Origin: Candidatus Latescibacterota bacterium
Lineage (GTDB): Bacteria; Latescibacterota; UBA2968
Assembly: GCA_965205975.1 (NCBI GenBank)
Contig: OZ242195.1
Coordinates: forward strand, 1,568,001 to 1,632,000
Length of the DNA: 64,000 nt
Direction of reading: 5' to 3'
Shown in pieces: positions 12,188-56,457 of this stretch. The first letter of the stretch is position 1. Each line of letters opens with the position of its first letter. The position numbers were made by a program, and so were the translations under genes. Under the pieces are notes generated by a model. That model saw only the letters and a program-made list of their open reading frames with translations. It was not told the DNA's origin and did no database searches.

Positions 12188-12203
12188 TGCAAAAAGCGTG
12201 CCA
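12188..12203 (-). promoter_or_regulatory. sigma54 -24/-12 promoter
   Basis: TGGCACGCTTTTTGCA; IHF-like TAAAGGGTTGTTT at 12234-12246. Confidence 0.85.
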
Positions 12204-12315
12204 ATGCGAGCGTTGTTCCGAAGAGCTTATTCGTAAAGGGTTGTTTTCTATAAAGAAAAAGAGCCAATCTGACTATATCATAGCGTCGCAGAATAGTCGG
12301 ATTGGCTCTTATACA

Positions 12316-12370
12316 AGACCTTATATGGTCTTATAAAGACGTATTATAGTTTTTAGACCATAATACGTCT
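12316..12370. promoter_or_regulatory. AGAC-N8-GTCT palindromes, candidate enhancer for bEBP1
   Basis: AGACCTTATATGGTCT, AGACGTATTATAGTTT, AGACCATAATACGTCT. Confidence 0.6.
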
Positions 12371-12480
12371 CCGTTGTTATTTCTGTTTTCAAGTGTGAAA
12401 TTTAATATTATGTTTCTTTTTCAAGTGTGAAATTCAATGTATAAACCCGTTTTTTTTACCCATATCACAAGGTTCTTCCT

Positions 12481-15400
12481 ATGACCAAACCACTTGACCG
12501 CACGGGTACCTATCGGACTTATTCTGTGACCAATGGCCTGGCCGGAATGCGTATTGAACACATTGCCGAAGATAGCGAGGGGTGTATCTGGTTCGCCACC
12601 TGGGACAATGGCGTTAGTCGCTTTGATGGAAATGAATTCCAGAATTTTACCAAACAGGACGGTCTTATTGATGATCGTACTTATTTTGTTGCACAAGACA
12701 GTCAGAATCGAATGTGGTTCGGGACAGCAAATGGCGTCTGCTGGTACGACGGAGCTAGATTTCACCATTTGGATGACGATGGCATTGTAGACCGAGACGT
12801 GCGGTGCATCTACGAAGACAGGGAAGGCCGTGTATGGTTCGGTGGTACCCGTACTCTGGGGTATTGCGATGGCACTGCTTTCCACGACATGATTCCGCTC
12901 TACCTTCAGCACCACGAAAAGCCACCTTCTCCGAGGTGGAATCAGTGTTGGGGTATTACTCAGGATCCGCAAGGTCAGATGTGGTTTGGCTTCAACTACC
13001 TCATCCGCTTCGATGGTCAATCCTTCCACCGCTATGATAAGAGAGACGGTTTTATCCAAGATGGAACCGCCTATGCCTTAGATAAAGACCATACCGGCAA
13101 AGTGTGGATCGGTCGTTTCGATAAACGAGATGAACTCTGGTGCTATGCCGATGGCACCTTCCAGTCTATTCAGGTGGATTTAGGTGGCGCACTGCGCAAA
13201 ATACAGTGTGACCGAGAAGGGCGGATGTGGTTTAGCACTTCGGAAGGGGCATGGTATCAGGACGGTGATGGGTTCAGCAGATTTACCCCTGCCGATGGCT
13301 TGCCCCAATCCGCAGTCAAAGCCGTGTTCCAGGATCGCGATCATCAGTTCTGGTTTGCCACCTGGAGCGGCGTCGGTCTTTACGATGCACACAGTATCAG
13401 TGTATTTGACCTCAATAAGGCTTCTCCCAAAGACAAAAAGCCGAACGAGGTCTCGCAGATCGTACAAGACCGGCAAGGGGATATATGGATCGGACGTGTG
13501 TCTCCTGTTTTCAACTATTTGGACAAAAGCGTTTTTCGCTTCGATGGCGAGCACTTTGCAGTTTTAGACTCCGAGCAAGATTTTGATATCGATAACTGTT
13601 TCTCTATGTACAAGGATCACGAGGGGTATCTGTGGTTTGGCGGTCTCAACGGCCTGTTCCGCTACGATGGGCAGAAGCTGAAAAAGATGAAAATAGCCGC
13701 GGGTTTAGGCGACAGGAGTATCAGTGCAATTACCCAGGATTCGCAAGGTCAATTCCTTTTTGGCTATTGGGAAAAGGGCACCTATAAAACCGAATTTAAA
13801 AAAGAAGTACTTTCGGCCAGTCCATTAAAGATCATTTACCAGCGGGACGAGCAGTTCCAAACCATTTTTGTGCAGAAAAAAAACAAAGATGTATTAGACC
13901 GTATTGGCACTATAATTGCCGGTCGCAACAGCGAGGTCTATTTTCATTTGGCCTGCCACACTGGCGGCTGGGGCCTGGCGCGGTGGCATCCCGAGGATGG
14001 TCTCAAATTTTATGGGATTGAAGATGGACTGATCGACGACAGAGTCACAGATCTTTTGGAAGACCGCGATGGCAACCTGTGGATCGCTACTCTAAGTGGT
14101 CTTTGTCGCTTTGATGGCAGCACCTTCCAGATCTTCACGACGGAAGACGGGTTGCCGAGCAACCGCATCCGTTGCGTGTTTGAGGATCGAAAAGGCCATC
14201 TATGGCTCGGTACAGACCAGGGTGTGGCGCACTGCGATGGTCAGCTTTTCCAGACCATCAACTCACCGCATATAGGACCGGTTTGTCGGATACTCGAAGA
14301 TCGAGATGGAACGTTCTATTTTGGCACTATTATGGGTTCTATCATACGCTACCGTCTGCGGCAAACTGCGCCTCGGATTCGCTTGCTTCAGGTGATTGCC
14401 GATAAGGTCTATGAGAACTCGGAGGAAGCCATCGTATCGAAGACAGGCCAGCAGGTGATTTTCGAGTACAAGGGCCTGAGTTTTTCCACCCATCCCAGCG
14501 ACATGCTCTATGTCTATCGCTTGAAAGGCTATGACGCCGACTGGCAACCAGCAACTCGAAGGATGCGAGCCTTTTACCGGAACTTGCCACCGGGCGATTA
14601 CACCTTTCAGGTCAGAGCGATAGATCGCGATCTGAATTACTCAGAGATAGCGCAAGCGCGACTCTCGATCACAGAAGACCCGCGTATCGAAGCATGGACC
14701 GACGTCATCAACCGTCGAGAAAGCCAGAAGTTTATCGGGCATAGCGCGGCTCTGCGCCAATTTCAGATCAATCTTGAAAAAATAGCATCTACCAATATGA
14801 CCGTGCTGATTATGGGTGAGACAGGGGTGGGTAAGGGATTGGCTGCTCGGACACTACACGCGCTGAGTGCCCATAACACTGGGCCTTTGATAGAGGTGAG
14901 TTGCGGTGCATTGCCCGGGACATTGATCGATAGTGAGTTGTTTGGTCACGAGAGAGGGGCTTTTACTGGCGCAGTTTTCCACAGATTGGGCAGGGTGGAA
15001 CTGGCAGAAGGTGGCACACTCTTTCTGGATGAGATCGGCGATATGGCGCTGGAAACGCAGTCCAAGCTGTTGCGCTTGCTGGAAGAAGGCACGTTTGAGC
15101 GGATTGGGAGCAGTGAGACGCGGATGGCAAAGACGCGGATTGTGGCCGCGACGAATCGCAATCTTGAGGAGATGGTCAGCAGGGGTGATTTTAGGGAGGA
15201 TCTCTATTACCGCCTCAATGCCTTTCCGATGTATTTGCCGCCGCTACGCGAGCGCAAGGAGGATATACCACACCTATCCGAGTATTTCAAGGATCGCATG
15301 GCATCACATTTAGGCAAGCAAATTATCCCCTTGGCGCCAGAAATTATCGAGGTGTTGCAAAGCTACGATTGGCCGGGCAATGTGCGGGAATTAGAGCATA

Positions 15401-15702
15401 CCATACAGCGGGCAGTGGTTTTGTGTACTGACTCTCAAATCGTAAAGAGGGATCTGGGACTGTATGGTTCTCGAATCGAAGATACAACTCAGGACCTTGA
15501 GAGGCGCACCTTATCGACTTCTCAAAACCGAGAAGTCGTGCCTTTGGCAGAATTGGAGCGGCGCCACATCCTCGATGTGCTCGAAGCCGCCAACTATCAG
15601 ATAAAGGGACCCGAGGGCGCGGCAACGCTGCTGAAAGTACCGCCTTCTACGCTGTATGGAAAAATGCAAAGACTGGGCATTGAAATAAAACGCGGTGTTT
15701 GA
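12481..15702 (+). CDS. sigma54 bEBP 1: beta-propeller (Reg_prop) + Y_Y_Y + AAA+ + Fis-type HTH
   Basis: Repeated ED..G.LW..T..G..RFDG, YRLKGYD...[43 protein letters not shown]-terminal HTH. Confidence 0.95.
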   Translation: MTKPLDRTGTYRTYSVTNGLAGMRIEHIAEDSEGCIWFATWDNGVSRFDGNEFQNFTKQDGLIDDRTYFVAQDSQNRMWFGTANGVCWYDGARFHHLDDDGIVDRDVRCIYEDREGRVWFGGTRTLGYCDGTAFHDMIPLYLQHHEKPPSPRWNQCWGITQDPQGQMWFGFNYLIRFDGQSFHRYDKRDGFIQDGTAYALDKDHTGKVWIGRFDKRDELWCYADGTFQSIQVDLGGALRKIQCDREGRMWFSTSEGAWYQDGDGFSRFTPADGLPQSAVKAVFQDRDHQFWFATWSGVGLYDAHSISVFDLNKASPKDKKPNEVSQIVQDRQGDIWIGRVSPVFNYLDKSVFRFDGEHFAVLDSEQDFDIDNCFSMYKDHEGYLWFGGLNGLFRYDGQKLKKMKIAAGLGDRSISAITQDSQGQFLFGYWEKGTYKTEFKKEVLSASPLKIIYQRDEQFQTIFVQKKNKDVLDRIGTIIAGRNSEVYFHLACHTGGWGLARWHPEDGLKFYGIEDGLIDDRVTDLLEDRDGNLWIATLSGLCRFDGSTFQIFTTEDGLPSNRIRCVFEDRKGHLWLGTDQGVAHCDGQLFQTINSPHIGPVCRILEDRDGTFYFGTIMGSIIRYRLRQTAPRIRLLQVIADKVYENSEEAIVSKTGQQVIFEYKGLSFSTHPSDMLYVYRLKGYDADWQPATRRMRAFYRNLPPGDYTFQVRAIDRDLNYSEIAQARLSITEDPRIEAWTDVINRRESQKFIGHSAALRQFQINLEKIASTNMTVLIMGETGVGKGLAARTLHALSAHNTGPLIEVSCGALPGTLIDSELFGHERGAFTGAVFHRLGRVELAEGGTLFLDEIGDMALETQSKLLRLLEEGTFERIGSSETRMAKTRIVAATNRNLEEMVSRGDFREDLYYRLNAFPMYLPPLRERKEDIPHLSEYFKDRMASHLGKQIIPLAPEIIEVLQSYDWPGNVRELEHTIQRAVVLCTDSQIVKRDLGLYGSRIEDTTQDLERRTLSTSQNREVVPLAELERRHILDVLEAANYQIKGPEGAATLLKVPPSTLYGKMQRLGIEIKRGV

Positions 15703-15721
15703 AATAGCCCACGCTTGTATA

Positions 15722-16063: not shown

Positions 16064-16115
16064 CTAAGCATTTCCTACTTTTGGCTAAAGATTTCGCCCT
16101 ACCCCGTACGTTCAG

Positions 16116-17551
16116 CGGTGTTGTCCTTATATTAGTTGAAATAGTAGAGGCTCCAATGTAAATTGGAGACAGCAGATTCAAACCGTGAAAACGCTGTGTC
16201 CACAACCAAAGGAGCCCGTGATGAAAAAAGTATCGCACAAAGCCCCCAAAGTCAAGGCAATCCACAAAGGCGATGCAACGTTTGATACACCCGTTGAAGA
16301 GGAACTGGGCGCACTGGATACCCGCATCGCGCTGATCCAGGCCTTGATCCCATTAGGATTAGACGCCGTGGCAGAAGAATTGCAGGAGGAAGTGAGCCGC
16401 TTGGCCGGGGACAGATACAGTCGCAAAGACACCGAAAACCCCAATCGTCGGTGGGGCAGTCAACAAGGGTCTGTGTATCTGGCCGATCAAAAAGTGCCGA
16501 TCTCTGTACCGAGGGTACGTAATGTGGAGAGGGATGAGGAAGTCTGCCTTGAGACCTATCATCACCTCCAAGTTCCCAGACGTATGGATGAAGGGCTGCT
16601 CCTTCGCGTGATCAAAGGCATTGCGACTCGGTCTTATCAAGCCTGCGCTGAGGCGATCCCGAAAGCCTTTGGGCTGTCCTCATCAACGGTATCGAGACGT
16701 TTTATCAAGGCGTCGGCACAAAAGCTGAAGCAGTTCCGTGAACGCTCTCTATCGCAGTATGACTTGGTTGCCCTCTTTATAGATGGCAAGACCTTTGCAG
16801 ACCAAGAGATGATCATTGCTCTGGGCGTGACGATAGAAGGGCACAAAATCCCAATAGGCTTTGTCCAGGCTGCCACTGAGAACGAACGCGTCTGTCGGCA
16901 GTTTATACAGTCTCTCATCAATCGTGGCTTGGTCTATCACAAGGGCCTGCTGTGTCTTATTGACGGCTCAAAAGGCTTGTATGCTGCCCTTACAAAGGCA
17001 TTGGACGGTTACGTGGTCATCCAACGTTGTCAGTGGCACAAGAGAGAGAACGTGCTTTCCTATCTGCCTAAAAATAAACAGGATCAGATCAAAAAGGCCC
17101 TACAAAATGCCTACGACCAGCCCACCTACAAAGATGCTAAAATGGCACTCTTATCCCTCAAAGCGGAATTGGCCTTGATCAACGAAGACGCGCTCTCCAG
17201 CCTTGAAGAAGGAATAGAAGAAACCCTTTCCTTGCATCGCCTCGGACTGATGCCGCACTTGAAGCAGTCCTTTCGTACGACAAACTGCATTGAGTCCATA
17301 AACTCAATGGTCGCACAAATCACACGAAATGTGAAGAGATGGACAAACTCGAATCAACGCAGGAGATGGTTAGCCACCGCTCTGCTGGACATTGAACCCC
17401 GATTGCGAAGGGTCAAAGGTTACAAAAGCCTACCCAGGCTCAGGCGCGCACTGCACAAGCACTTGAAACTCGATACAGACTGGCAAGACGCAATTGCTGC
17501 GGATTGAAAACACCGGCCTCAATTATTTCAACTAAATATAGGACTTGACCC
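16116..17551 (+). mobile_element. IS256-family insertion sequence
   Basis: Imperfect ~36-bp terminal IRs (core TTAGTTGAAATA.T.GAGGC) around the transposase; no target duplication seen. Confidence 0.85.
16185..17507 (+). CDS. IS256/mutator-family DDE transposase
   Basis: FIDGK, LIDGSKGL, QRCQWHKRENV, RTTNCIESINS. Confidence 0.92.
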   Translation: MKTLCPQPKEPVMKKVSHKAPKVKAIHKGDATFDTPVEEELGALDTRIALIQALIPLGLDAVAEELQEEVSRLAGDRYSRKDTENPNRRWGSQQGSVYLADQKVPISVPRVRNVERDEEVCLETYHHLQVPRRMDEGLLLRVIKGIATRSYQACAEAIPKAFGLSSSTVSRRFIKASAQKLKQFRERSLSQYDLVALFIDGKTFADQEMIIALGVTIEGHKIPIGFVQAATENERVCRQFIQSLINRGLVYHKGLLCLIDGSKGLYAALTKALDGYVVIQRCQWHKRENVLSYLPKNKQDQIKKALQNAYDQPTYKDAKMALLSLKAELALINEDALSSLEEGIEETLSLHRLGLMPHLKQSFRTTNCIESINSMVAQITRNVKRWTNSNQRRRWLATALLDIEPRLRRVKGYKSLPRLRRALHKHLKLDTDWQDAIAAD

Positions 17552-17877
17552 ACTCTATCTGTTGCAGTTGTATTGTCGTCATCTACGACGGTTAGACGAA
17601 ACACCAACACCTGGTATCCTTTGACTTTGGGTGCTACAAAAGATGCAGATGCCTGATTCGCGTTTGAGATCGACACAGAAGGACCCTCAACCTGTTCCCA
17701 ACGATAGGCCTGAATCGTGCCGTCCGGATCCGATGCACTGCCGCGGAGCCTCACTTTATCGCCTGCGGCAACCATCAGATCGGGGCCGCTGGCTTTTACA
17801 TTGGGCAACTGGTTTAACTCACAGCCTGCGAACAGGGCAACCGTCGCAATCAACATGAACATGTTGTTGTGTCTCAT
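17552..17877 (-). pseudogene. PKD-domain lipoprotein truncated by IS256
   Basis: Lipobox LFAGC; ASDPDGTIQAYRWEQVEG...FRLTVVDDD; frame runs into the IS end after ...TATDRV. Confidence 0.75.
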
Positions 17878-18101
17878 TTTACTCCCTCCCCTGAGAGAGG
17901 TGTTCCAAGCCGTTATACTCGTATTCTCTAATCGGAGTGATGTAAAAGTGTGCCGATAGGGGTAAGCAAGCGGTCCATATAACTTGATACCCCTATCAGC
18001 TTACGCCGGGAAAAGGTATTATGGGAGGACCAAAACCCGGCGTGTGCTTGCGTGATAGAGCTGCATTATCGCAACCCTGCACGTTATTTCAACAGCCGCC
18101 G

Positions 18102-21100
18102 CTACCAGCCTATTGTGGCGCGTCCAGTAACCCCGTTATCCGCACCGATAGACAACGGACTCGCGCGCCGATGGGCATCGAGGTTCAACTCAAACCTCAA
18201 ACCCTCGCTAACGAGTGTACCGATGCCATAACCAACGCGGTAATCCCGACCTTGAGCCGAGGTCGCAAAGCCCAAACGCGGCGTGCCCACAAAGCGCCTG
18301 CCCAACGCCAAACCATACCCCAGATCCGCATCGAGACGGTTGCCCGTCGCATAACCACCACCCGCTATGCCCGACATCGTGGGCCGACCCCACAACGCCT
18401 CGGCTCCGCTCGTCGCCTGACCGCCCCACGAAGGCGACATACGCATCGTCAAACCCAATGGCGTCGATGGACTCGGATTGTAACGCAAAGACACCGCCAT
18501 ACCGCGCTCACGGTAGCCTTCCGCCTCGTGGATCAGCAACGTCCGCACGCGCATATCTACCTCCAGACCCGTCAAAGGATCCGAAACGACCAGACCCCCT
18601 GCGATATCCAGACCCGATCCTGTCTCGGCATCGCCCCCATCGTGACGAAGACCAACCATCACGCTCGGAGATAGAGACAATCGGCTCCGGAACGTCAGGG
18701 CATGAGATCCCTCAAGTGCTGTGCGCACACGGCTTACCACTGAACGCGTCGCTGCCAGATTGCCCGAAGAACCAGATACTGCCTCGCTCGACGTACCTAC
18801 CCACAACGCATCGGCCTTATACGACAACCTGAAACCGTCTGCGCTCCTGCCGATCAATTCGCCGCGCGTGCCCACCGCCGCCAGCGACATCGACAGACCC
18901 GCCGACAGTTGCGAGGCGCCTTCTTGACTCAGCAGCATACCACCCACACCGTAGCCACCTACTGCCCACACCGTCATCCGATCCGTCAAACGATAGCCCA
19001 GCCACGGATAAAGACCCGTCACCGACGAAGCCACACGACCACCACCCACCCCACCCGTGTAACTGCCCAATCCCCAACTGCGAGACAAAGACAAGCCCAC
19101 CAGAAAAGGTCCCTTCGCGTAGTCAGTACCGAGCATCGCCGTGCGAACAGTGCCATCCAGACCCAGATCATCTTCGCGACCAAAAAAGGACGACCGCGCA
19201 CCACGGCTCCAGAAAGAGAACACGCCTCCCCGATCCATCTCACGGTTAAGCGTAAACGACGAACCCGTCAGCACATCGCCCATCCTGAAAAGCGACCTCA
19301 GCATGCCTGCAAGACCAAAGGAAGAGCCAGACGACGCCATCCCTACATCGCGCCGCCCCAACGACGGGTTGTGTGACCCATACCCGCCGAGGCCATACAC
19401 AAAGCGATTCGCCACATCCCTGACCATATCCTCAGCACGACCCAACTGATGACCCGCCAAACGCCCCTCAAAACCCGACTCACGCCGTGCCTGCAGACGC
19501 TCCTCCACATATTCCACCACCTGCAACGCCGCCGTCCGACCAAACCGCGCAAGCAGGCCCTTAGGCATTGGATCGATGTTCTCAATGGTGCCAGTTGCAT
19601 CCGCGTCGGAGAGATACGCGTTGCCGCCCGACGCGTTGGAGAGCGTCAGCGTGAACGTCTCTGAACCCTCGTCAATGGCATCGTCGAGCACTGGCACCGA
19701 AATTGTCTTCTCTGTCTGTCCCGCATCGAACGTCAGCGTACCCGACGTAGATGTGTAGTCCACTCCGACCGTTGCCGTGCCGTCAGAGGTCGCATAATCC
19801 ACTGTCACGGTCTCCGACAAAGCCCGACTCAGCGTCACTGCAAAATCGACTGTCGCATTGGCAGCCTCCTGCACGCTCGCATCCGCCACAGACAACCCCG
19901 GCGGCCCCTGAACTGTCGCCGATACTGCCCCCTGCAACTGACGACCATCGGACGTCTCCACGGCGCCAGCCGGCAGGCTGATCGTCACCGCATCATACGT
20001 ATCCGGCGCCACCGTGATCTCCCAACCCTGGTTGTTGCCCGACACGAGACGCCCCGCCTTCGTCACCGCACCCCCCGTCACCGTGAAGGCATTATCGCGC
20101 AGCGTCCGGTAGCTAAGACCCACCACATCCTCACTGAAATGCAATTCGAACTTGAACGCACTCGACCCGTCGTGGGACGACGGCACATTTCCGAAACTCG
20201 CTGTCAACGGCTCGGGTTCCGTATCGGGCGGCTGATTCTGGACGGTCTGTGCCACCGTCGCCGAAACCGTCTCCGAAACTGTCGCCGACAACGGGCGGTT
20301 ATCCTCGGTGCAGATCGCACCGGTCTCCCCACAGTCTGCCGCAAGCAGTGTGATCGTCACATCCTGATCATTGTCGGGCGTAACCGTCACATTCCACGCC
20401 TGATTCTTCCCCGTTTCCTGGCGCCCTACCCCGGTGAGTTCCCCATTGGTCACCTGCAGCGCGTGATCGCGTAGCGTCCGGTAGCTCAGGTTGAACTCCT
20501 CGGAGAAGTGCAACTCAAAGGTGAACGCGGATTCGCCGTGGGAAGCCGGCAGTCCCTGGAACTCCGCCGTCAACGGCTCGACCGGATCGTTGTCTGGTGG
20601 GTCGTTAGTTGGGGGAGACCCTGCGACGGTGATGGTGGCCTCGCCGCTCCAGCCTCCGGAGGTGCCGCTATATGAGGCGCGTATCTTCACCTTGTATTCT
20701 TCTCCGTCCTCCAGACCCGTGATGGTGTAGGAAGGCTCGGTGGGATAGGCATTGCCAGTGTTGTCGGTCCAGGTCTTGTAACCCTCGTCCTGCTTTGCCC
20801 ATGTTATGCGGTAGTTGGCCGGAGCCTCCGTTGGTGCTTCCCAGGAGGCCTGGATGGTTCCGGGCGTGTCTGCCGTCAGGGTAATGGTTCCGATGTCGCG
20901 GGCACCGCGCGGTTCTTCCGGTTCCAGCACGACGGTATTGCCCGAAGGTGGATCGGCCGAATCGTCGTTGTTAATGGTCCCGGTCGCAGTCGCATCTGAG
21001 AGATACGCATCGCCACCCGATGCGTTGGAGAGCGTCAGCGTAAACGTCTCTGAACGCTCGTCAACGGTATCGTCAAGCACCGGCACCGAGACCGTCTTCT

Positions 21101-29582: not shown

Positions 29583-29696
29583 ACAGCGATTCCTCCCTTT
29601 TGGTTTAAAATTACCTCACGTTGTGCAAGGCATCCCCCGTCGCTGCCACGCGCTTCAGAGATGCCCTTTTGAGGCTCTGACAAACTTTTATATATA

Positions 29697-29712
29697 TGCA
29701 AAAAGCGTGCCA
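29697..29712 (-). promoter_or_regulatory. sigma54 promoter of the 3826-aa gene
   Basis: TGGCACGCTTTTTGCA; IHF-like CAACACATTGTTT at 29741-29753. Confidence 0.88.
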
Positions 29713-29810
29713 CTGTGAATAGAACCCAAAATGATACTCGCAACACATTGTTTTAAAAGAATATAGAACTGTAAATAAAAACAAAAAACCAGACTGAATT
29801 TTATACCCAG

Positions 29811-29929
29811 GGACAATGTATCGCCCCTGATATAATCAGTCTGGCTCATTTTCTACTTATTATTACAATGATTTATGGCTTTAGGGCGACTATTCGCCCT
29901 AAAAAGCGTTATCGGGCTACTATTCGCCC
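29811..29929. promoter_or_regulatory. GGGCGA-N4-TCGCCC palindromes, candidate enhancer
   Basis: 29884-29899 perfect, 29914-29929 and 29811-29826 degenerate. Confidence 0.7.
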
Positions 29930-29979
29930 CTGAAAGCGTTTAATGCCCAGCCTTTTTATTTTTCTAAAAAGAGTAGAAG
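29930..29979 (-). pseudogene. Isolated 3' end of a bEBP gene
   Basis: Encodes STLFRKIKRLGIKR; near-identical to the ends of bEBP2 and bEBP3. Confidence 0.8.
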
Positions 29980-30012
29980 TCTGACCAGGGACCTCCATAG
30001 CATTTCGACGCA

Positions 30013-32514: not shown

Positions 32515-32553
32515 ATTATTCCAATATTTATGGTTGTTGGGCGATCATTCGCC

Positions 32554-35500: not shown

Positions 35501-35745
35501 GTGCCAAACCACAACCGATTCTGACTGTCTTGTAAAACAAAAAAAGTCCGGTCACTACAAAGACCATCTCTTTCGGTAAAATTCTTGAATTCGTCTCCAT
35601 CAAAGCGGCTCACGCCGTTGTCCCAGGTGGCGAACCAGATACAGCCCTCGCTATCCTCAGCGATGTGTTCAACGCGCATCCCTGCAAGGCCATCGGCGAT
35701 AGAATAAGTCCGACAGATGCCCGTGTGACCAAGTGATCCGATCAT
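32554..35745 (-). CDS. sigma54 bEBP 2 (propeller + Y_Y_Y + AAA+ + HTH)
   Basis: Same architecture as bEBP1; GAFTSA variant. Confidence 0.95.
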
Positions 35746-35797
35746 AATAAAAATCCTTATTATTACGCGCCTGCATTATCGCAACCCTGCGGACGCA

Positions 35798-35876: not shown

Positions 35877-35902
35877 AGATGAGACATGCACACGGGGCGC
35901 CT

Positions 35903-41221: not shown

Positions 41222-41267
41222 AATCGATTGCTCCTCTTCAAGATTGATTTAAAACCGAATAGACGCG

Positions 41268-47135: not shown

Positions 47136-47189
47136 TGTCGTTTATCTCCTTTCCCAATGATTAGACAGGCTCCAGCGTAGATAGACGCG

Positions 47190-50100
47190 CTATTTCAGCA
47201 GCAAAAGACGGCGTACCTGCACCTCCTGTGCACTGGACAACCGATACAGATAGATCCCACTGGCAACGGGCGCACCATTATCGTTGCGCCCATTCCAGAC
47301 CACCCGATAGCGACCAGCCGACTGGACCTCCTGCACCAGAGTCCGTATCCGCTGTCCCAGAATATTGTAAATCGCCAACTCTACAGCACCCGACGTGGAT
47401 AGGCGATAGGCGATATGCGTCTCGGGATTAAACGGATTCGGATAATTCGCCTCCAGCCCGAAGGTCAGACTCGGCACTATGGGCTTAGACGACTGTGACT
47501 CGACGACTGTGATCGTAGCCTGACCGCTCCAGTCGCCAGCAGTGCCGTTGTATCGGGCGCGTATCTTCACCTTGTATTCCTCACCCGCCTCCAGACCCGT
47601 AATCGCGTAGGAAGGTTCGGTGGGATAGGCGTTGCCAGTGTTGTCGGTCCAGGTCTTGTAACCCTCGTCCTGCTTTGCCCATGTTATGCGGTAGTTGGCC
47701 GGAGCCTCCGTTGGCGCCTCCCAGGATGCCTGGATCGTTGCTGGGGTCGCTGCCGTCAGGGTAATCGTTCCGATGTCGCGGGAACCGCGCGGTTCTTCCG
47801 GCTCCAGCACAACGGTATTCTCCTGAGGTGGATCGTTGGCGGGTGATTCTGCGACCGTGATGGTGGCCTGACCGCTCCAGTCGCCAGCGGTGCCGCTATA
47901 TGAGGCGCGTATCTTCACCTTGTATTCTTCTCCCGCCTCCAGACCCGTAATCGCGTAGGAAGGTTCGGTGGGATAGGCGTTGCCGGTGTTGTCGGTCCAG
48001 GTCTTGAAACCCTCGCCCTGCTTTGCCCATGCTATGCGATAGTTGGCCGGTGCTTCACTGGGTGCCTCCCAACTGGCCTGGATGGTTCCCGGCTGAGAAC
48101 TGACCAGAGTGATCCTTCCTATGTCGCGAGTGCCACGCTGCTCGGGTGGCTCCAGCACAACGGTATTCTCCTGAGGTGGATCCGCAGGAATGTTCTGGAC
48201 TGTGACGATAACCGTGTCAGAGTCTGTGGCGCCGTGCTCGTCGGTGGCAGTAAGCGTAAAGGTGATGGTGGCATCAGAGTCCACCTGGGGCGCAGTAAAT
48301 GTAGCAGAGAGAGCTGCTGGGTCATCCAGCGAGAGGTCCAGATCATCCTGGTCGTGGGTCCACTGGTAGGTCAGATTATCGTTGTCAGGGTCAGAGGCTG
48401 TTCCGGACAGCGTCACCTCAGAGCCTTCCTGAACGGTCTGGTCAGATCCGGCGTCGGCAGTCGGCGCTTCGTTGGATGGAGACCCTGTGACCGTGATGGT
48501 GGCCTCGCCGCTCCAGCCTCCGGAGGTGCCGCTATATGAGGCGCGTATCTTCACCTTGTATTCTTCTCCCGCCTCCAGACCCGTGATGGTGTAGGAAGGT
48601 TCGGTGGGATAGGCGTTGCCGGTGTTGTCGGTCCAGGTCTTGTAACCCTCGCCCTGCTTTGCCCATGTTATGCGGTAGTTGGCCGGAGCCTCCGTTGGTG
48701 CTTCCCAGGAGGCCTGGATGGTTCCGGGCGTGTCTGCCGTCAGGGTAATGGTTCCGATGTCGCGGGCACCGCGCGGTTCTTCCGGCTCCAGCACAACGGT
48801 ATTGCTCGGGGGTGGGTCGCTGTCATCCTCCGGTTCCGCCGTAGGCTCCGTGCCCTCGTGGGACAGGTCCGCCACGATGCCGGTCGCTCGCGACACGATT
48901 TTCCCACCGGTCGATCCGAGGCTGTTCTCCGTGATCGCGATCCGGATGTGCCTTGCCTCTTCGTCCGCCACCTCCTGTCCAAATACCAGCGTTGCAGTTC
49001 CGGAACCGGACGCAAGGGCGAGTACCGCCGGCCCGCCGGAGATCGTTACCCAAAGAGTCAGGCTGCCCTTCACGGACACCGGCTCGCTGAAGGTGACGCG
49101 CGCCTCGATGCTCTCTCCGTGTGTCCAGGCGCGGTCGCCCGACTCGTCCGCGACCAGTTCCACGGCGGTCACGTAGGGCGCGACCGGCGGTGTTCCCAGC
49201 ACCGTTCCCAAAAGTGCTGCAGACCACTCCCCATCGCCTTCCGAGCTCGTCGCCCTTACCCGCACCTCATATTTAGCTCCCTCCACCAGCCCCGATATTT
49301 TCGCGCGGGTCTCCGCCACATCCTGCGGTCCGTCTCTGAACGGGTCGCCGGCCGGCCACCCCACCAGGCGGTAGCCCAGGTCGTAGTGCAGAATGTCCGG
49401 TTTGCCCGAGTTTGCCGGGGCGAGCCACGACACCGTCAAACTCTCGCGGTCCCGCGACTCCAGCGTCGGCGCGGCCAGGCTGTCGGGTGGTTCGTCCTGA
49501 TTCGAGACCGTGATCGTCAGTCCGTGCTCGGCGCTATCCTCACCGTCCCGCACAATGATCGAAAGCGCGTGCTCGCTGGCCTTCTCGAAGTCCAGCACCG
49601 CCTTCGTCCTCAGCTGCGCAGTCGTCGAATCAATCGCGAAATCGTCCTTGCCGGGCCCGTCCAGAGAATAGGTCAACGCAGCGTTCGGATCCGTGCGGGA
49701 CGCGGTGAAGGGTTCGCCGATCTTCGTGTCCGTTGGCGTATTCTCGGCGACTGACAGCGTCACCGGCAGACCTGCGTCGAATACGAGCGGACGTTCAACG
49801 CGTGCGCCCAGGATCTTCATCTTCATTACATAGTCTCTGGTGCTCCATTCAATCCAGCCGGTTTGCTTCCAATGACTGTCGTCTGCAATCCGCCAGGCGT
49901 CCGTTCCGGATTCGGCGCCACTGTTGGTCGCCTCGATCTTGAACCATCGCTCAGTGCCTGAAGTGTGCAATGCGAACTGGATCACATAGTCGGTATTGGG
50001 CTGAAGAATCCTGCTCTCCTCCGACGTACCATCGACAGGTACGAACGTCACCGGGCCGCCGTCGCCGAGGAACTTGCCGTACGTCGTTGGATTCTCGAAA

Positions 50101-52235
50101 TCCAGGATCTTCTCCCCGAGTGGGTCGCTTGCGTCACCGAACAAATGGAGCGATGCCTCCAGATTATCCCCGTCGATCTCTTCGTAGAAGCCAAAGTTCA
50201 ACACGACCGATGTCAGTTCGTAGCCATCCCTTGAATCGCCGGTGGTAAAGACCTGTGCCCCCCGCTGATTGAGGCTAGTGCCGTCTGCCTTGCCGATTTT
50301 GGGTCGCCAGTCCAGCGGTCGATCCAGGTTGCTGACCAAAACATCGCCCTGCGGGACGCCGACGGGCGGTGTCGTCGAGTCATCGTCCGCGATGGTGCCG
50401 GTTGCCGTGGTGTCCGACAGATACGCCCGCCCGCCCGACGCATTGCTCAGCGTCAGCGTGAACGTCTCGGCGCCTTCCTCGACTTCATCTGACAGCAACG
50501 GCACCGAGACCGTCTTGCCGGTCTCGCCCGTCGCGAACGTCAGCGTTCCCGACGTGGCCGTGTAATCCGCTCCGGCGGTCGCCGTCCCATCGGAGGTTGC
50601 GTAGTCCACCGTCACGGTTTCAGCCACCGTGCGGTTCAGCGTCACCGCGAAGTCCACGGTCGTGTTCGCACCCTCCACCTCGCTCGCATCGACCACCGAC
50701 AGCCAGGGCGCCGGACCCGGAACCGTCGCCGCCACCGGCACCGAGAGCGGCCGCCCATTGTCGGTGCAGATCGCGTTGGCCGCCGAGCAGTCCGTCGTCG
50801 CGAGGAGAGTGATGGCAATGTCCGCAACGTCGCTGTCCGGAGCGATGCGAATCCGCCAGACAAGATTCCGGTGGTTCGACCCGTACCGGTACGTCCGCTC
50901 CAACCGTCCGTTGACCACGGCAAGCGCGCCCGCCCGCCTTCCATCCCCCTTCAGGTTCAAGTAGCTGAAGAGCGAATCCGGTTCTTCGCTGAAGCTGAGC
51001 AGAAATTCGAATGCCGCCCCGTCGTGACTGGTCGGCACCCCGACAAACTCTGCCGTAAGCTCGGCCCCGTCGATCCGCCCTGTCGCTATCGCGTCCAGGA
51101 CTCGCGCGTTGGCGCTCGGGTTGCTCAGCGTCAGCCTGAATTCCTCAAAGTCCTCGTGAACATCGTCGTCGGAGATTGTCACGGTCACGGTTTTCGAGGT
51201 CTCGCCCGCGGCGAACGTCAGCGTCCCCGAAACGGCCGTGTAGTCGGATCCGGCGATGGCCGTCCAGTCGGAAGTCTCGTAGTCCACGGTGGCCGCATTC
51301 GGCAGCGCCCCGTCCATCGTCACGACGAAGGATGCGGTGTAGCCCTCGACAGCCATCGCGTCGGCTACGTACAGACCGCCGGGTCCCTGGGTGTCGGGCG
51401 CCACCTGGAAAACGGAGGAGAGGGCATAGACCCGGGTGGACAATGTGCCGTCGGCACCAGCGCCCCGGTCAACGCTGTACATGGGCATTCCGCCGGAGTT
51501 CAACTTTCCGCCGCCGACCCTTTCGCCCTCGGTCGTAATATTGCGAAACGGCCACTTGGGTTTGGAACGGCCGTCCGACGTGCTGCCGTTGAGTACGCCA
51601 AGTGCCTCGTCCGATCCCGATCCGCCCGCCTCGGTGGTCCAGGATTCGCTATCCCAGTACCCGTCGTACAGGTCCTCGTAGTCGTCCGCGACCCTGACGC
51701 CGCTGCCAAGCCAGTAGATGGGCTCGCCGGGGCCATCCGTGTTGGGGTTCGTACCGGTGTTGTCCCGCGCGGCTACCGCGGCCGTACTGGCCAGGACCCG
51801 GAAGAGTGAACTGTGCGATTGAATGGCCGCGTGGCCCGCCGCCGCGCGGGCCTGCACGAACGCGTTGTAGTCGTCGATGTCGTTGGAGTTGAGCTGGATC
51901 TCAGTGGAGGTCACGAACAACAGGCGGAACGTGTCTCCGGCCCCTACTTCGGGCGGAATCAGCGACCAGTCCGACGGAACCCTGGTCTGTGCCCAGGCTG
52001 GCACCCCCGACAGAAGCGCAGCAAGCGCGAGGAGCACGGCTACAGTCCAGCCCGCAGTGGTGGATCGCGCCCGACCGTGGCGGATCAACAATCCATGCCG
52101 GACCACATCGTCCACCTCGTTGTGAGTGTTCGGACAGGGCTCGAGACAGCTAACTCGCATGGAAGTGCCTTGCTTGTCAATCGGTGCTCCGCAATTCAAG
52201 GTAGCCGTTTGCTGGACTGAAGTTGTCATGCTCAT
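47190..52235 (-). CDS. Modular surface protein (1681 aa): lectin-like N-terminal domain (tentative), Calx-beta, cadherin, fn3, PKD, FlgD-Ig/T9SS-like CTD
   Basis: VPSDWSLIP...FRLLFVTS tip, PTADAGSDQTV PKD motif, tail identical to the 1955-aa protein. Confidence 0.88.
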   Translation of the reverse strand: MSMTTSVQQTATLNCGAPIDKQGTSMRVSCLEPCPNTHNEVDDVVRHGLLIRHGRARSTTAGWTVAVLLALAALLSGVPAWAQTRVPSDWSLIPPEVGAGDTFRLLFVTSTEIQLNSNDIDDYNAFVQARAAAGHAAIQSHSSLFRVLASTAAVAARDNTGTNPNTDGPGEPIYWLGSGVRVADDYEDLYDGYWDSESWTTEAGGSGSDEALGVLNGSTSDGRSKPKWPFRNITTEGERVGGGKLNSGGMPMYSVDRGAGADGTLSTRVYALSSVFQVAPDTQGPGGLYVADAMAVEGYTASFVVTMDGALPNAATVDYETSDWTAIAGSDYTAVSGTLTFAAGETSKTVTVTISDDDVHEDFEEFRLTLSNPSANARVLDAIATGRIDGAELTAEFVGVPTSHDGAAFEFLLSFSEEPDSLFSYLNLKGDGRRAGALAVVNGRLERTYRYGSNHRNLVWRIRIAPDSDVADIAITLLATTDCSAANAICTDNGRPLSVPVAATVPGPAPWLSVVDASEVEGANTTVDFAVTLNRTVAETVTVDYATSDGTATAGADYTATSGTLTFATGETGKTVSVPLLSDEVEEGAETFTLTLSNASGGRAYLSDTTATGTIADDDSTTPPVGVPQGDVLVSNLDRPLDWRPKIGKADGTSLNQRGAQVFTTGDSRDGYELTSVVLNFGFYEEIDGDNLEASLHLFGDASDPLGEKILDFENPTTYGKFLGDGGPVTFVPVDGTSEESRILQPNTDYVIQFALHTSGTERWFKIEATNSGAESGTDAWRIADDSHWKQTGWIEWSTRDYVMKMKILGARVERPLVFDAGLPVTLSVAENTPTDTKIGEPFTASRTDPNAALTYSLDGPGKDDFAIDSTTAQLRTKAVLDFEKASEHALSIIVRDGEDSAEHGLTITVSNQDEPPDSLAAPTLESRDRESLTVSWLAPANSGKPDILHYDLGYRLVGWPAGDPFRDGPQDVAETRAKISGLVEGAKYEVRVRATSSEGDGEWSAALLGTVLGTPPVAPYVTAVELVADESGDRAWTHGESIEARVTFSEPVSVKGSLTLWVTISGGPAVLALASGSGTATLVFGQEVADEEARHIRIAITENSLGSTGGKIVSRATGIVADLSHEGTEPTAEPEDDSDPPPSNTVVLEPEEPRGARDIGTITLTADTPGTIQASWEAPTEAPANYRITWAKQGEGYKTWTDNTGNAYPTEPSYTITGLEAGEEYKVKIRASYSGTSGGWSGEATITVTGSPSNEAPTADAGSDQTVQEGSEVTLSGTASDPDNDNLTYQWTHDQDDLDLSLDDPAALSATFTAPQVDSDATITFTLTATDEHGATDSDTVIVTVQNIPADPPQENTVVLEPPEQRGTRDIGRITLVSSQPGTIQASWEAPSEAPANYRIAWAKQGEGFKTWTDNTGNAYPTEPSYAITGLEAGEEYKVKIRASYSGTAGDWSGQATITVAESPANDPPQENTVVLEPEEPRGSRDIGTITLTAATPATIQASWEAPTEAPANYRITWAKQDEGYKTWTDNTGNAYPTEPSYAITGLEAGEEYKVKIRARYNGTAGDWSGQATITVVESQSSKPIVPSLTFGLEANYPNPFNPETHIAYRLSTSGAVELAIYNILGQRIRTLVQEVQSAGRYRVVWNGRNDNGAPVASGIYLYRLSSAQEVQVRRLLLLK

Positions 52236-52271
52236 ACCTCAACTTTTGAAGCTCTGGATTAAGATTATATA

Positions 52272-52287
52272 TGCAAAAAGCGTGCCA
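52272..52287 (-). promoter_or_regulatory. sigma54 promoter of the three-gene surface-protein cluster
   Basis: TGGCACGCTTTTTGCA, within a ~290-bp near-duplicate of 29690-29979. Confidence 0.88.
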
Positions 52288-52385
52288 CTGTGAATAGAAC
52301 CCAAAATTATACTCACAACACATTGTTTTAAAAGAATATAGAACTGTAAATAAAAACAAAAAACCAGACTGAATTTTATACCAGG

Positions 52386-52504
52386 GGGCAAGTTATCGCC
52401 CCTGATATAATCAGCCTGGCTCATTTTCTACTTATTATTACAATATTTATGACTGTTGGGCGGCGATTCGCCCTTAAAAATGGCTATCGGGCTACTATTC
52501 GCCC
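52386..52504. promoter_or_regulatory. GGGCGA-N4-TCGCCC-type palindromes, candidate enhancer
   Basis: 52386-52401, 52458-52473, 52489-52504 (abutting the bEBP3 stop). Confidence 0.7.
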
Positions 52505-55500
52505 CTAAGAGCGTTTAATGCCCAGCTTTTTTATTTTGCTAAAAAGAGTAGAAGACGGTAATCCCAGCAGGGCCGCTGCACCCTGAGCGCCTTTTACCCG
52601 ATAGTTGGTCGCTTTGAGCACTTTGAGGATGTGACGGCGTTCGAGTTCATCCAAAGTCACAACTGCTCGGCTCTGATCTAACTCGTGAGCGAGATCTGCA
52701 ATCTGAGCCTTAGACAGTTCAAGGTCACTTACGCCAATTTGAGAATTGCGACACACAATTACGGCGTGGTTTATCGCATGCTCCAATTCCCGCACATTAC
52801 CCGGCCAATCGCAGGCTTGCAACACCTCAATAACCGCTATCGTCAAAGGAGCTATGTCCTTGCCCAGATGCGCTGCCATGCGGGCCTTGAAATACTCCGC
52901 CAACTCCGGGATGTCCTCCCTGCGCTCGCGAAGCGGCGGCAAAGACATCGGAAACGCGTGGAGGCGGTAATAGAGATCCTCCCGAAAATCACCTGTGCCG
53001 ACCATCTCCTCAAGATTGCGATTCGTCGCTGCCACAATCCGCGTCTTTGCCATCAGCGTCTCACTGCCCCCAACCCGCTCATAAGTGCCCTCTTCCAGCA
53101 AGCGCAACAGCCTGGCCTGTGTTGCCAGAGTCATATCGCCGATCTCATCGAGGAAGAGCGTGCCATCTTTGGCCAGTTCCACCTTGCCCAGCCTGCGAGA
53201 AACCGCACTGGTAAACGCCCCTCTCTCGTGACCAAACAGTTCACTGTCAATTAGTGTTTCAGGCAGTGCACCGCAGTTGACCTGTATAAAAGGCCCATCG
53301 CTATGGGCACTCTGTACGTGTAACACCCGTGCAGCCAGTCCCTTCCCCACACCTGTCTCGCCCATAATCAGCACCGTAATAGCAGTGGGTGCCACCTTCA
53401 GGAGTTTGTTTTGAAACTGATACAGAGCAGCGCTTTGTCCAATAAATCTATTGTCTCCCTGGCTATTGAGCGCCGTTTTCAGGCCTTCGATACGCGGATC
53501 TTCCTCTACCGAGATCTGCACCTGCACAATCTCCGAGTAATTGAGGTCGCGATCTATCGCCCGGACCTGAAAGGTGTAGTCTCCCGGCGGCAAGTCCCGG
53601 TAATGCGCCCGCGTCTTTCGGGTCGGTAGCTGCCAGTTGGGGTCGTGTCCTTTTAATCGGCAAACATACAGCATATCGCGGGAATGGGTGGAAAAACTCA
53701 GGCCCTTGTACTCTAAAATCACATTCTGATCTGCGGTAGATACGATAATTTCCTCCGGACTCTCATAGACCTGATTGGCAATCACCTGCAGCAGGCGAAT
53801 CCGGGGCGGCGTTTGTAGCGGACGGTAGCGTATGACATTACCCTGCATAGTGCCAAACCAAAAGGCGCCGTCGCGATCTTCGAATATCTGAGAAACCGGT
53901 CCTATATGCGGTGACTTGATGGCCTGAAAATGCTGTCCATTGTAGTGAACCACGCCCCTATCTGTGCCGAACCAGAGGTGGCCTTGCGAATCCTCGAATA
54001 GACAACGGATGTGGTTGCTCGGCAACCCGTCTTCTGTCGTGAAGGTGTGGAAAGTGCGACCATCAAAGCGGCACATACCGCTCAAAGTGGCGATCCACAG
54101 GTTGCCTGCGCGGTCTAAGAGCAGGTCAGTGACCTGGTTGTCTGTCAGCCCATCTTCAATGCCATAAAATTTGAGACCCTCTTCGGGATGCCAGCGCGCC
54201 AGACCCTTGTCGCCAACTGAGAAATTGTGGCAGACCAAATGAAAATAGATCTCGCCCTTGCGCCCGACAACCACAGTGCCAATGCGGTCTAAAAAACCTT
54301 CCTTTTTGTCCTTTAAAAAAATGGTTTGAAACTGCTCGCCCCGCTGGTAAATGATCTTTAATGGGCTGGGCGAAAGCACTTCTTTTTTTATAAATTCGGT
54401 TTTATAGGTGCTCTGTTCCCAATAGCCAAAAATGAATTGGCCTTCCTGGTCCTGCGCGATTGCACTAACACTTTTTTTGTCTAATTCTGCGATTGTTTCT
54501 ATTTTTTTAACCTTCTGCCCATCGTAGCGGAACACGCCATTGAGGCCGCCAAACCACAGATACCCTTCGCGGTCCTCGTACATAGAGAAACAGTTGTGGA
54601 TATCGAAGCCCTGCTCGGAGCCTAAAAATGCAAAGTGTTCGCCATCAAAACGGGCGATGTCGTTGCTCTGGGTGACCAGAATAGGGGAAACATACCCGAT
54701 CCATATATCACCTCGCCGGTCTTGCGCGATCTGCGAGACCTCGCTCGGCTCTTTGGAAAACGCCTTACCCAGGTCAAAAACGCTGATACTATGTGCATCG
54801 TAGAGCCCTAAACCGCCCCAGGTGGCAAACCAATACTGATGATTGCGATCCTGAAACACGGCTTTGACTGCGGGATGGGGCAAGCCATCGGCAAGGGGAA
54901 ACCTGTTGAATCCTTCTCCGTCCTGGTATAATACGCCCTCAGAAGTGCTGAACCACATCCGACCTGTACCGTCACACTGAATTTTACGTAATCTACCACC
55001 CAAATCTATTTGAACAGACTGGAAGGTCCCATCGGCATAGCACCGGAGTTCATCTCGATTTCCAAACCGACCGATCCACACTTTGCCGGTATGATCTTTA
55101 TCTACGATATAGGCGGTTCCATCTGGCGGAAAGCCATCTTTCTCCTCATAGCGGTGGAAGGATTCACCATCAAAGCGGATGAGGAAACTACAGCCAAACC
55201 ACAGATGACCTTGCGGATCCTGGGTAATACCCCAACACTTGGCCCACCTATCAGAAGGCGGCTGCTTGTATTGCTGAAGGTAGAGCGGAATCATGTCGTG
55301 GAAAGCAGTGCCATCGCAATACCCCAGAGTTCTCGGGCCACCGCACCATATACGCCCCTCACGGTCTTCGTAGATGGACTGCACGTCTCGGCCTGCAATG
55401 CCCTCGTCATTCAAATGGTGAAAATCTGTTCCATCGTACCAGCATACGCCATTTTCTGTACCGAACCACAACCGATTCTGACTGTCTTGTAAAACAAAAT

Positions 55501-55702
55501 AAGTACGATCGTGAATAAGACCGTCCTGTTTGGTAAAATTCTGGAACTCGTCCCCATCAAAGCGACAGGCACCGTTGTCCCATGTGGCGAACCAGATACA
55601 GCCCTCGCTATCTTCGGCGATGTGTTCAATGCGCGTCCCGGTCAGGCCATCGGCTATCGAATAAGTCCGATAGGTACCCGTGCGGTCAAGTGGTTTGATC
55701 AT
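52505..55702 (-). CDS. sigma54 bEBP 3 (propeller + Y_Y_Y + AAA+ + HTH)
   Basis: Same architecture; C-terminal half near-identical to bEBP2; GAFTSA. Confidence 0.95.
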
Positions 55703-55797
55703 AGGAAGAACCTTGTGATAGTGAGAATGGTTGAGGGATTTGTCGGTGTTGGCATTGGGGCGCTGACATAATCCGGCTTTATGTCATTGGCTCGGTC

Positions 55798-56391
55798 TTA
55801 TCCTTTATTAAATGTTATTACTTTTTTTGGTGTAGGGATAAAGATGTCAAAGTCTTCGGGTGGTCCGTAAGTAATACCGACCTGAGAAAGAGCAATGGTA
55901 AATTCCTGCGTCACATTTACTTTGGTAACGAACTCGACCCGAGCTAAAAACCCGGACGATGGTAGGCGCACCTTTGGTTGTTCATTTCTCACAGAAAGAA
56001 TACTTTCATTGGCAGATGCTATAAAAGCATTGAAGAAGACATTGTTCTCGATTTTGGAATACGTTAGAATATTTGAATCAAAATCAAACTTAATGTACGC
56101 GCCTAAGAAAGGTCTGTTCACGATGGCGAATACTTCAATGGCAATTTTCTTACCCTGTCCAGACACTTGCCCTGAAGTAACGCGATCATCTCTCTTGTTA
56201 CCTATCCCACCATCGATAATAAAATCAAGTGCTAAGGTGTCAGAAGGAGCAGTCTGTGCGACCTGTTCATCTCTTTCATTTGGCGTATCTGGCTCAACCG
56301 GCTGAGGCCCTGATATCTTGTTACCACCGCAAGACAACACCGATAAACAAAAGAGCAGAACGCAAGATAACCACAATCTATTGCTCAACAT
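55798..56391 (-). CDS. Lipoprotein with cohesin-like beta domain
   Basis: GGGAG RBS, lipobox VLSC, IKFDFDSNILTY segment resembling the N-domain of 30013-32514. Confidence 0.7.
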   Translation of the reverse strand: MLSNRLWLSCVLLFCLSVLSCGGNKISGPQPVEPDTPNERDEQVAQTAPSDTLALDFIIDGGIGNKRDDRVTSGQVSGQGKKIAIEVFAIVNRPFLGAYIKFDFDSNILTYSKIENNVFFNAFIASANESILSVRNEQPKVRLPSSGFLARVEFVTKVNVTQEFTIALSQVGITYGPPEDFDIFIPTPKKVITFNKG

Positions 56392-56439
56392 GTAAATCTC
56401 CCTTTTCTTGTCACAATATAAACTTGCCTTCCGTTATAC

Positions 56440-56455
56440 TGCAAAAAGTGTGCCA
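56440..56455 (-). promoter_or_regulatory. sigma54 -24/-12 promoter
   Basis: TGGCACACTTTTTGCA. Confidence 0.82.
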
Positions 56456-56457
56456 AC

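Follow-up and report, generated by a model that had tools for sequence, protein, structure and literature searches.

Introduction

One-component bacterial enhancer-binding proteins (bEBPs) such as NifA, NorR, FhlA and DmpR/XylR consist of an N-terminal sensor (GAF, PAS or V4R), an AAA+ domain with a GAFTGA-type loop, the threonine of which is important, and a Fis-type helix-turn-helix (HTH), and their promoters have palindromic upstream sites and a -24/-12 box. Here we analyse a stretch of bacterial DNA of 64,000 nucleotides (the window, positions 1568001-1632000 of the single-contig genome G000; 5.56 Mb, 50.9% GC) that encodes three bEBPs of this general plan, bEBP1 to bEBP3, together with promoters that have sigma54 boxes and palindromes. 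Unlike the known members, these proteins carry a 730-aa double propeller and Y_Y_Y sensor, occur in up to about ten copies per genome, show a readable code between recognition helix and palindrome base and appear to have exported proteins as targets. From comparison with their relatives we conclude that the window proteins are probably cytoplasmic one-component sigma54 activators with cognate palindromes, a sigma54 promoter and mostly exported cargo.

The closest described sensors are those of the Bacteroides hybrid two-component systems (HTCS) BT4663, BT3049 and BT4673, which have the same two seven-bladed propellers and Y_Y_Y domain. There they are periplasmic domains of membrane kinases, whereas the window proteins have no signal peptide, transmembrane (TM) helix, kinase or receiver, and a linker of about 30 aa joins the sensor to the AAA+ domain. 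The membrane-spanning one-component regulators BguR/SusR also fuse a tandem propeller and Y_Y_Y to a DNA-binding output, with no phosphorelay and with a conserved upstream motif; BguR is reported to carry a GerE output besides its signal peptide and TM helix, and to control glycan-utilisation loci (bioRxiv 10.64898/2026.01.10.698779), in contrast to the soluble window proteins with their sigma54 ATPase output. The atypical bEBPs that use sigma70 (TyrR, VpsR, HupR, PhhR and NtrX, PMC6158489) resemble one clade of relatives, from genus g23, which lacks the loop and nearly always the box and has mostly kept the palindromes; the three window proteins, unlike these, keep a GAFT[GS]A loop.

In literature searches that covered result listings and the openings of abstracts, we found no paper on a fusion of propeller sensor and sigma54 bEBP, which supplements and subscription reviews of bEBP architectures may nevertheless list, and none on what activates the adhesins and eukaryotic-like repeat proteins of sponge symbionts. 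Such proteins of sponge-associated bacteria have been catalogued, and the words "sigma" and "regulator" are absent from the main text of that work (PMC12993501).

The propeller bEBPs and their promoter modules

A first-pass annotation of the window, made from the sequence alone, had described three propeller-sensor bEBPs of about 1070 aa, and domain scans bore this out (Table 1): each has Reg_prop, Y_Y_Y, Sigma54_activat (PF00158, E<=3e-63), AAA lid and HTH_8 domains, with the Walker A/B, GAFT[GS]A, arginine-finger and sensor II motifs intact. Their best NCBIfam matches are NifA, NorR and FhlA, all far under the cut-offs. Pairwise identity among the three is 72-87%, and bEBP2 and bEBP3 are 97% identical over the last 320 aa and 83% over the sensor. 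A hydrophobic N-terminus and a TM helix are missing from all three (19-residue hydropathy maximum 1.4), and a value of 1.8 or more was reached by none of 91 locus proteins and none of 120 database homologues, so that all are soluble by hydropathy; the same scan flagged four other G000 propeller proteins as membrane-linked. The domain scan of the window bEBPs detected no HisKA/HATPase, receiver or AraC output, and no combination of a TM helix with a GerE/LuxR output. G000 has 22 bEBP open reading frames (ORFs), five of the propeller type and 17 others, and encodes RpoN and four HU/IHF-family genes. Two of its propeller paralogues are damaged, one (4401932-4405137) split near the N-terminus and with its own promoter module before a 939-aa exported protein, the other (2543337-2545634) with internal deletions.

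The four sigma54 boxes reported by the annotation are all exact and on the minus strand, and the promoters P12189, P29698, P52273 and P56440 are named after them. Boxes alone are commonplace in G000, since 58 exact ones occur there, 36 of them intergenic; boxes with at most one mismatch number 14 in the window against 4.88 expected (0/100 shuffles reach 14), and a further match lies inside bEBP1, at 13905. The palindromes that had been noted upstream of three boxes were found at about 110-215 bp from 12189, 29698 and 52273. None was found upstream of 56441, and the enhancer score of P56440 ranks 56/92. All four first downstream genes look exported, as claimed (dockerin-like/LRR, with leucine-rich repeats; 3826-aa Calx-beta/SWM/fn3; 1681-aa fn3/Calx-beta; cohesin-like lipoprotein).

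Aligned on the box, the family promoters share a layout of two or three 16-bp palindromes (at about -205, -185 and -114 in the downstream type; -167, -148 and -128 in the divergent type), an outer inverted repeat with a T-tract at its end (59/75), an AT-rich motif at -41 to -45 (71/75), and the box. The AT-rich motif we call IHF-like, for its likeness to the consensus site of integration host factor (IHF). In 87% of promoters the best palindrome pair exceeds the 95th percentile of shuffles. Read as an RNA terminator, the outer repeat has 50 G-U against 5 A-C sense-strand mismatches in 32 long-spaced copies, and the balance is reversed in 27 short-spaced ones (12 against 31, mostly at one fixed position). 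P29698 and P52273 are duplicates of a single module (316 bp, 90% identical; 29666-29979 and 52243-52554), and the former once sat right behind a bEBP, because a bEBP 3' remnant is preserved at 29908-29979. Today the 833-aa LRR gene separates the 29698 box from bEBP2, and a lone palindrome (32539-32554) lies between bEBP2 and that gene.

Conservation of the unit among relatives

The N-terminal 300 aa found matches in 41/140 genomes of the phylum, among them 15/20 other genomes of the genus with 2-11 each; the bEBP3 homologues carry Gemmatimonadetes/Gemmatimonadota labels of metagenome-assembled genomes in named source records. A search for related loci in genome contigs gave AAA-domain matches only and no close relatives. 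Nearly every full-length hit of the homologue listing was covered by 80 retrieved regions (loci with L-numbers; f1, f2 and f4 denote bEBP families). Pooled with the window and with two loci of G000, they yielded 92 distinct proteins, of which 88 have 450 bp on both sides; about 90 copies retain open frames of more than 950 aa. An adjacent box, defined by a score of at least 14 on a position weight matrix (PWM) trained on G000 boxes, is present in 71/88 copies against 35/2577 G000 ORFs and 7/17 other G000 bEBPs, and lies downstream in 44 (155-368 bp), divergently in 23 (248-379 bp) and on both sides in four. By a crude hydropathy rule (hydrophobic N-terminus, at most one later TM helix) the first gene behind the box looks exported in 62/76 cases, against 806/4002 ORFs and 7/27 other sigma54 promoters. 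The enrichment among homologues that the annotation had offered as a check is thus strong in f1/f2.

The 76 first genes fall into 34 clusters, the largest (23) of dockerin-like/LRR/cadherin proteins. Scans of 23 representatives and six cargo proteins of relatives also returned a PL8 lyase, a multicopper oxidase, TonB-dependent receptors, a GPP34-P450 fusion and REC-AraC regulators. The earlier proposal of adhesin or LRR cargo therefore has to be widened to exported proteins: export and eukaryotic-like repeats are indeed enriched, but enzymes, receptors and regulators occur as well. In L046 and L240, sensor-less bEBPs stand directly behind a family promoter.

The two halves of the proteins form a mosaic, the identities of sensor and output being correlated by only 0.33-0.40. 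Two pairs have propellers at least 90% identical and outputs 69-74% identical, and six pairs, bEBP2/bEBP3 included, show the reverse; in the course of evolution, duplication and recombination have reshuffled sensors, outputs and cargo. Taken together, the data support a repeated, conserved unit of soluble propeller bEBP, palindromic enhancer, sigma54 promoter and exported cargo.

Covariation of recognition helix and palindrome

The residue that follows TL[YF] in the recognition helix tracks base 5 of the palindrome half-site, a relation first spotted by eye. Serine or threonine goes with G in 20/23 promoters, and glycine or asparagine with C in 47/52 (four G, one tie); in divergent loci, where the HTH lies 3 kb from the site, the counts are 5/5 and 21/22. 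On the propeller tree (trees by FastTree) 9.7/11 independent pairs are concordant (p about 0.002). When 1060 columns were scanned without preselection in 66 promoters (effective n 45.5, after dropping 9/75 as duplicates, poor pairs or partial proteins), residue 1055 came first for base 5, with a mutual information of 0.67 against 0.13 for the next column, and base 4 was best tracked by residues 1049 and 1051.

Predictions for 25 loci of the distant family f4 were written before these were fetched. Scored with a site PWM that does not discriminate at base 5, 22/25 loci had both a site and a helix that could be read, and serine went with G in 10/10 and glycine or asparagine with C in 11/11 (21/21), with one histidine and C; these loci are related to one another, two of the single-site calls may have arisen by chance, and at least two sites were also present in 24/200 random windows. 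Helix residue 1055 and half-site base 5 thus covary across the compared sequences. In the window, bEBP1 (G1060) faces P12189 with palindromes of the C type, and bEBP2 (S1053) and bEBP3 (S1055) match the G-type sites of P52273 and P29698.

Contrary results and the joint loss of loop and box

Several results weigh against the mechanism proposed below. No adjacent box was found in 17/88 copies, bEBP2 among them, and 90/120 database homologues have GAFTSA instead of GAFTGA. The AAA tree offers only four independent pairs (p 0.125), and the loci are kin; in downstream-type loci, where HTH and enhancer are physically linked, co-inheritance could account for the match. None of the HU/IHF-family proteins of G000 reaches an IHF cut-off of NCBIfam. 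The structure model of the sensor is of moderate quality (pLDDT 66.6, pTM 0.45). Finally, the prediction, made beforehand, that most f4 copies would have an adjacent box failed, as a score of at least 14 was found in 2/20 evaluated copies, and the following explanation by loop loss is post hoc and rests on one clade each in f4 and f1.

Thirteen f4 copies form one well-supported clade without the GAFTGA loop, and 12/13 have box scores below 0. The loop-intact f4 copies all have downstream boxes (9/9, scoring 2.8-24.9), and with a relaxed box definition 4/9 reach 14. The loop-less clade (genus g23: L212, L213, L215, L217-L226) has kept paired palindromes in most members, followed in some by sigma70-like promoters (11/12 consensus bases in L212, 10/12 in L222), and RpoN is present in 5/5 genomes carrying those copies. 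In f1, copies in which the loop threonine is replaced by alanine lack a box in 7/8 cases, while 71/82 intact copies have one. These f1 copies (L025, L036, L052, L059, L062, L076, L081, L089) form a syntenic, mostly box-less clade behind an aminotransferase gene, and in some genomes they precede a second, intact bEBP. Two separate losses of the loop would thus accompany loss of the box, which fits a functional coupling, and the g23 clade has likely switched to sigma70 regulation, for which VpsR and TyrR provide a parallel (PMC6158489).

The sensor

The structure model has 14 four-stranded blades, with the Y_Y_Y part poorly predicted; BT4663, BT3049 and BT4673 are its nearest matches by fold and also top hits by sequence. 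Loops on the entry face are more variable than those on the exit face (entropy 1.31 against 0.78, which longer loops may inflate; positions above 2 bits, 52/207 against 11/115). BT4663 binds disaccharides on the entry faces of its propellers (PMC5121618). By analogy, we infer an imported glycan fragment as the candidate ligand. A sigma54 motif occurs in 19 of 149 distant representatives, and 19/19 of these have neither signal peptide nor TM helix. This soluble double propeller also occurs fused, with no TM helix, to histidine kinase or SpoIIE outputs (20 scanned; P0122, P0124, P0129, P0137, P0139, P0144, P0149, P0213), as expected of a sensor that is joined to varied outputs.

Proposed wiring of the promoters and alternative explanations

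In the mechanism that we propose, the HTCS-like double propeller would bind an intracellular ligand, each ligand-bound bEBP would bind its own matching 16-bp palindromes, and the palindrome-bound protein would switch on the adjacent sigma54 promoter of mostly secreted or surface proteins. For bEBP1, the predicted targets are P12189 and an orphan promoter at G000 2772837, where a P12189-like module (82% identical) lies next to a receiver-type bEBP whose helix differs. bEBP2 and bEBP3, with unlike sensors and near-identical outputs, would form an OR gate on P52273, P29698 and the orphan adhesin promoters 4499897 and 1412493, module copies that precede 3607-aa and 5846-aa proteins with no propeller bEBP nearby. 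Two further orphan promoters with family palindromes lie at 1929134, before a LacI-like regulator, and at 4360752.

The genes after P52273 are three adhesin-like genes, bEBP2 and an LRR gene, with gaps of 55, 47, 158 and 40 bp. Because the gaps through bEBP2 are small, a transcript that ran through the three adhesin genes into bEBP2 would create positive feedback, and the chain bEBP3, P52273, bEBP2 is plausible from this gene order. Similar chains of promoter, cargo and bEBP occur in the relatives L023, L035, L042, L058, L059, L087 and L091. Terminator scans were at chance level (13 against 13.2; 11 against 10.0), so missing terminator hits between the cargo genes are weak evidence.

A strict version of the first-pass reading would have it instead that each sensor activates only its own adhesin or LRR cargo, in a working cascade from P56440 through bEBP3 to bEBP2. 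Insulation of this kind is partly visible, as complete genomes have two to five helix classes among three to nine copies, and a bEBP follows a family promoter directly in 5/76 cases, while in L035, L042 and L023 it comes after one or two intervening cargo genes; the gaps between P52273 and bEBP2, with no terminator-like hit inside, would permit the lower step. The rule of one sensor per cargo fails all the same, and the wiring appears many-to-many, because bEBP2 and bEBP3 have a common helix class and enhancer type and at least four orphan module promoters lie elsewhere in G000; the enzymes, receptors and regulators among the cargo also go against it. The upper cascade step is unsupported, since P56440 has no family enhancer and the remnant of an insertion sequence (IS) with an IS256-like end stops at its -24 element. 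We consider this version unlikely. A hybrid sigma70 promoter made by the IS at 56441 was judged by eye and looked weak, and sigma70-like hits in 46500-58000 are at chance (8 against 6.3).

Alternatively, the palindrome-bound proteins might be mainly repressors or sigma70 regulators of the TyrR/VpsR kind, with the sigma54 boxes served by other bEBPs, of which G000 has 17. One g23 clade, with its loop lost, palindromes kept and sigma70-like promoters, seems to have gone this way. The three window proteins, by contrast, retain all catalytic and sigma54-contact motifs, the presence of a box tracks loop integrity across the family, and the palindromes lie at enhancer distance with an IHF-like site in between; this explanation is somewhat less credible still.

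Slightly less probable again is that the pattern mostly reflects co-inheritance of one copied bEBP-promoter cassette, with the propeller as a scaffold or repressive domain and many copies decaying, for which the 90% identity of the P29698 and P52273 modules, the split and the internally deleted paralogues in G000 and several truncated or IS-hit cargo genes might speak, but against which stand the joint change of base and HTH residue in unlinked divergent loci and in f4, the roughly 90 long open frames, and the propellers on histidine kinase and SpoIIE outputs.

Cargo genes, mobile elements and genomic setting

Table 1. Positions of bEBPs, promoter elements, cargo genes and mobile elements in the window.
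Feature	Position	Strand	Remarks
bEBP1	12481-15702	+	1073 aa; soluble double propeller, GAFTGA, helix residue G1060
bEBP2	32554-35745	-	1063 aa; GAFTSA, helix residue S1053
bEBP3	52505-55702	-	1065 aa; GAFTSA, helix residue S1055
sigma54 box P12189	12189-12203	-	exact TGGCAC-N5-TTGC; divergent from bEBP1
sigma54 box P29698	29698-29712	-	exact TGGCAC-N5-TTGC
sigma54 box P52273	52273-52287	-	exact TGGCAC-N5-TTGC; 216 bp past bEBP3 stop
sigma54 box P56440	56441-56455	-	exact TGGCAC-N5-TTGC; no family enhancer
IHF-like site, P12189	12234-12246	-	about 45 bp upstream of box
Outer inverted repeat, P12189	12259-12310	-	conserved, then T-tract
P12189 palindromes	12316-12331, 12337-12352, 12355-12370		three of 16 bp; predicted bEBP1 enhancer; half-site base 5 mostly C
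P29698 module	29741-29929	-	IHF-like 29741-29753; hairpin arms 29786-29797, 29836-29847
P29698 palindromes	29811-29826, 29884-29899, 29914-29929		bEBP2/3 type; half-site base 5 G in 3/6, C in 0/6
P52273 module	52316-52504	-	IHF-like 52316-52328; hairpin arms 52361-52372, 52411-52422
P52273 palindromes	52386-52401, 52458-52473, 52489-52504
3' remnant of lost bEBP	29908-29979	-	reads as HTH recognition helix
P12189 cargo	11179-11961	-	signal peptide; dockerin/EF-hand-like motifs and LRRs; short version of its family
IS256/Mutator element	16116-17520	+	truncates PKD lipoprotein gene
Truncated PKD lipoprotein	17440-17877	-	residues 1-110 match 816-aa cargo of relative L055
3826-aa surface protein	18102-29582	-	Calx-beta/SWM/fn3/cadherin; autotransporter-like C-terminus; 63% GC
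833-aa signal-peptide protein	30013-32514	-	dockerin-like, cadherin, fn3, LRR; 40 bp behind bEBP2
1772-aa protein	35903-41221	-	Calx-beta/SWM
1955-aa protein	41268-47135	-	GH16/SWM/fn3; FlgD_ig / T9SS-like C-terminal domain
1681-aa protein	47190-52235	-	fn3/Calx-beta/PKD; first cargo of P52273
197-aa lipoprotein	55798-56391	-	cohesin-like domain
IS remnant	56453-56696		abuts -24 element of P56440

The relatives of the P12189 cargo are mostly 400-1000 aa long, and the window protein aligns at 69% with residues 1-237 of the L032 cargo, a protein of 954 aa. The truncated PKD lipoprotein is likely the final gene of the P29698 unit. The 1772-aa and 3826-aa genes have a common 1.8-kb 3' end (35898-37677 and 18097-19909, 88% identical), and the 1681-aa and 1955-aa genes share their 3' 658 bp (47181-47838 and 41259-41916, 96%); high-GC adhesin bodies carry interchangeable export tails, T9SS-like (T9SS, type IX secretion system) in the 96% pair or autotransporter-like in the 88% pair. 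Two of the four large cargo proteins end autotransporter-like (the domain was scanned for the 3826-aa protein) and two in the FlgD_ig/T9SS-like tail. GC is 62-65% in the four large cargo genes and 51-52% in the bEBPs, and therefore suggests that these genes were acquired and then placed behind native promoters. The 197-aa lipoprotein has domain-level matches only (about 50%) in the relatives; its cohesin-like domain and the dockerin-like motifs of the 833-aa cargo suggest a cohesin-dockerin assembly on the cell surface.

The IS element has three more copies in G000 (98.5-99.9% identical); 196 bp of the IS remnant recur at two other G000 places (99.5%), and its end resembles the IS256-type element. 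Independent contigs span the LRR-bEBP2, bEBP2-adhesin and bEBP3-lipoprotein junctions, and their comparison gave no credible rearrangement joints, the joints being short-sided and inside repeats; nothing in this contig-level comparison points to programmed phase variation.

A tRNA-Phe (2359-2434) and a tyrosine integrase-AAA fusion (5401-7077) lie nearby, and the bEBP cluster may be part of a genomic island. A fifth intergenic sigma54 box (7597-7611), outside the span 12188-56455 covered by the first-pass annotation, has a different palindrome type and is duplicated at G000 2796352. An isolated RAMP-superfamily ORF (10433-11020) lies downstream of the LRR cargo, and no other cas genes were seen among the scanned ORFs. 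G000 has a second family of sigma54 promoters with another shared upstream module (2009626, 2785392, 2850638, 2954319, 4084758, 4107630), several of which precede ABC-permease-like genes. Judging from gene content, the lineage may be a sponge-associated one of the Latescibacterota.

Discussion

What is new here is a lineage-expanded variant of the one-component sigma54 activator that likely controls surface proteins, and the comparison of loci gives good support for its cognate enhancers and exported cargo. Ligand sensing, DNA binding, dependence on RpoN and IHF, and transcription itself we infer from the conserved arrangement. Here a fold known from periplasmic glycan sensing would sit in the cytoplasm and be joined to a sigma54 ATPase. 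Both the natural code between helix and base and the fact that one clade seems to have lost its sigma54 dependence are useful for studies of bEBP specificity and for orthogonal activators.

For the adhesins and eukaryotic-like repeat proteins of such bacteria, the propeller bEBP family offers a candidate regulator, site and promoter. More tentatively, and with considerable doubt on our part, the family might be a recombining host-contact switchboard, in which cytoplasmic propellers use hypervariable entry-face loops to read imported molecules of the host, for instance glycan fragments, an HTH code of a few residues directs the signal to particular promoters, and a portable enhancer module takes up newly acquired eukaryotic-like surface genes behind it. 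If so, sensor, address and cargo would be swapped independently, and OR gates and feedback would set the surface display of what is likely a sponge symbiont.

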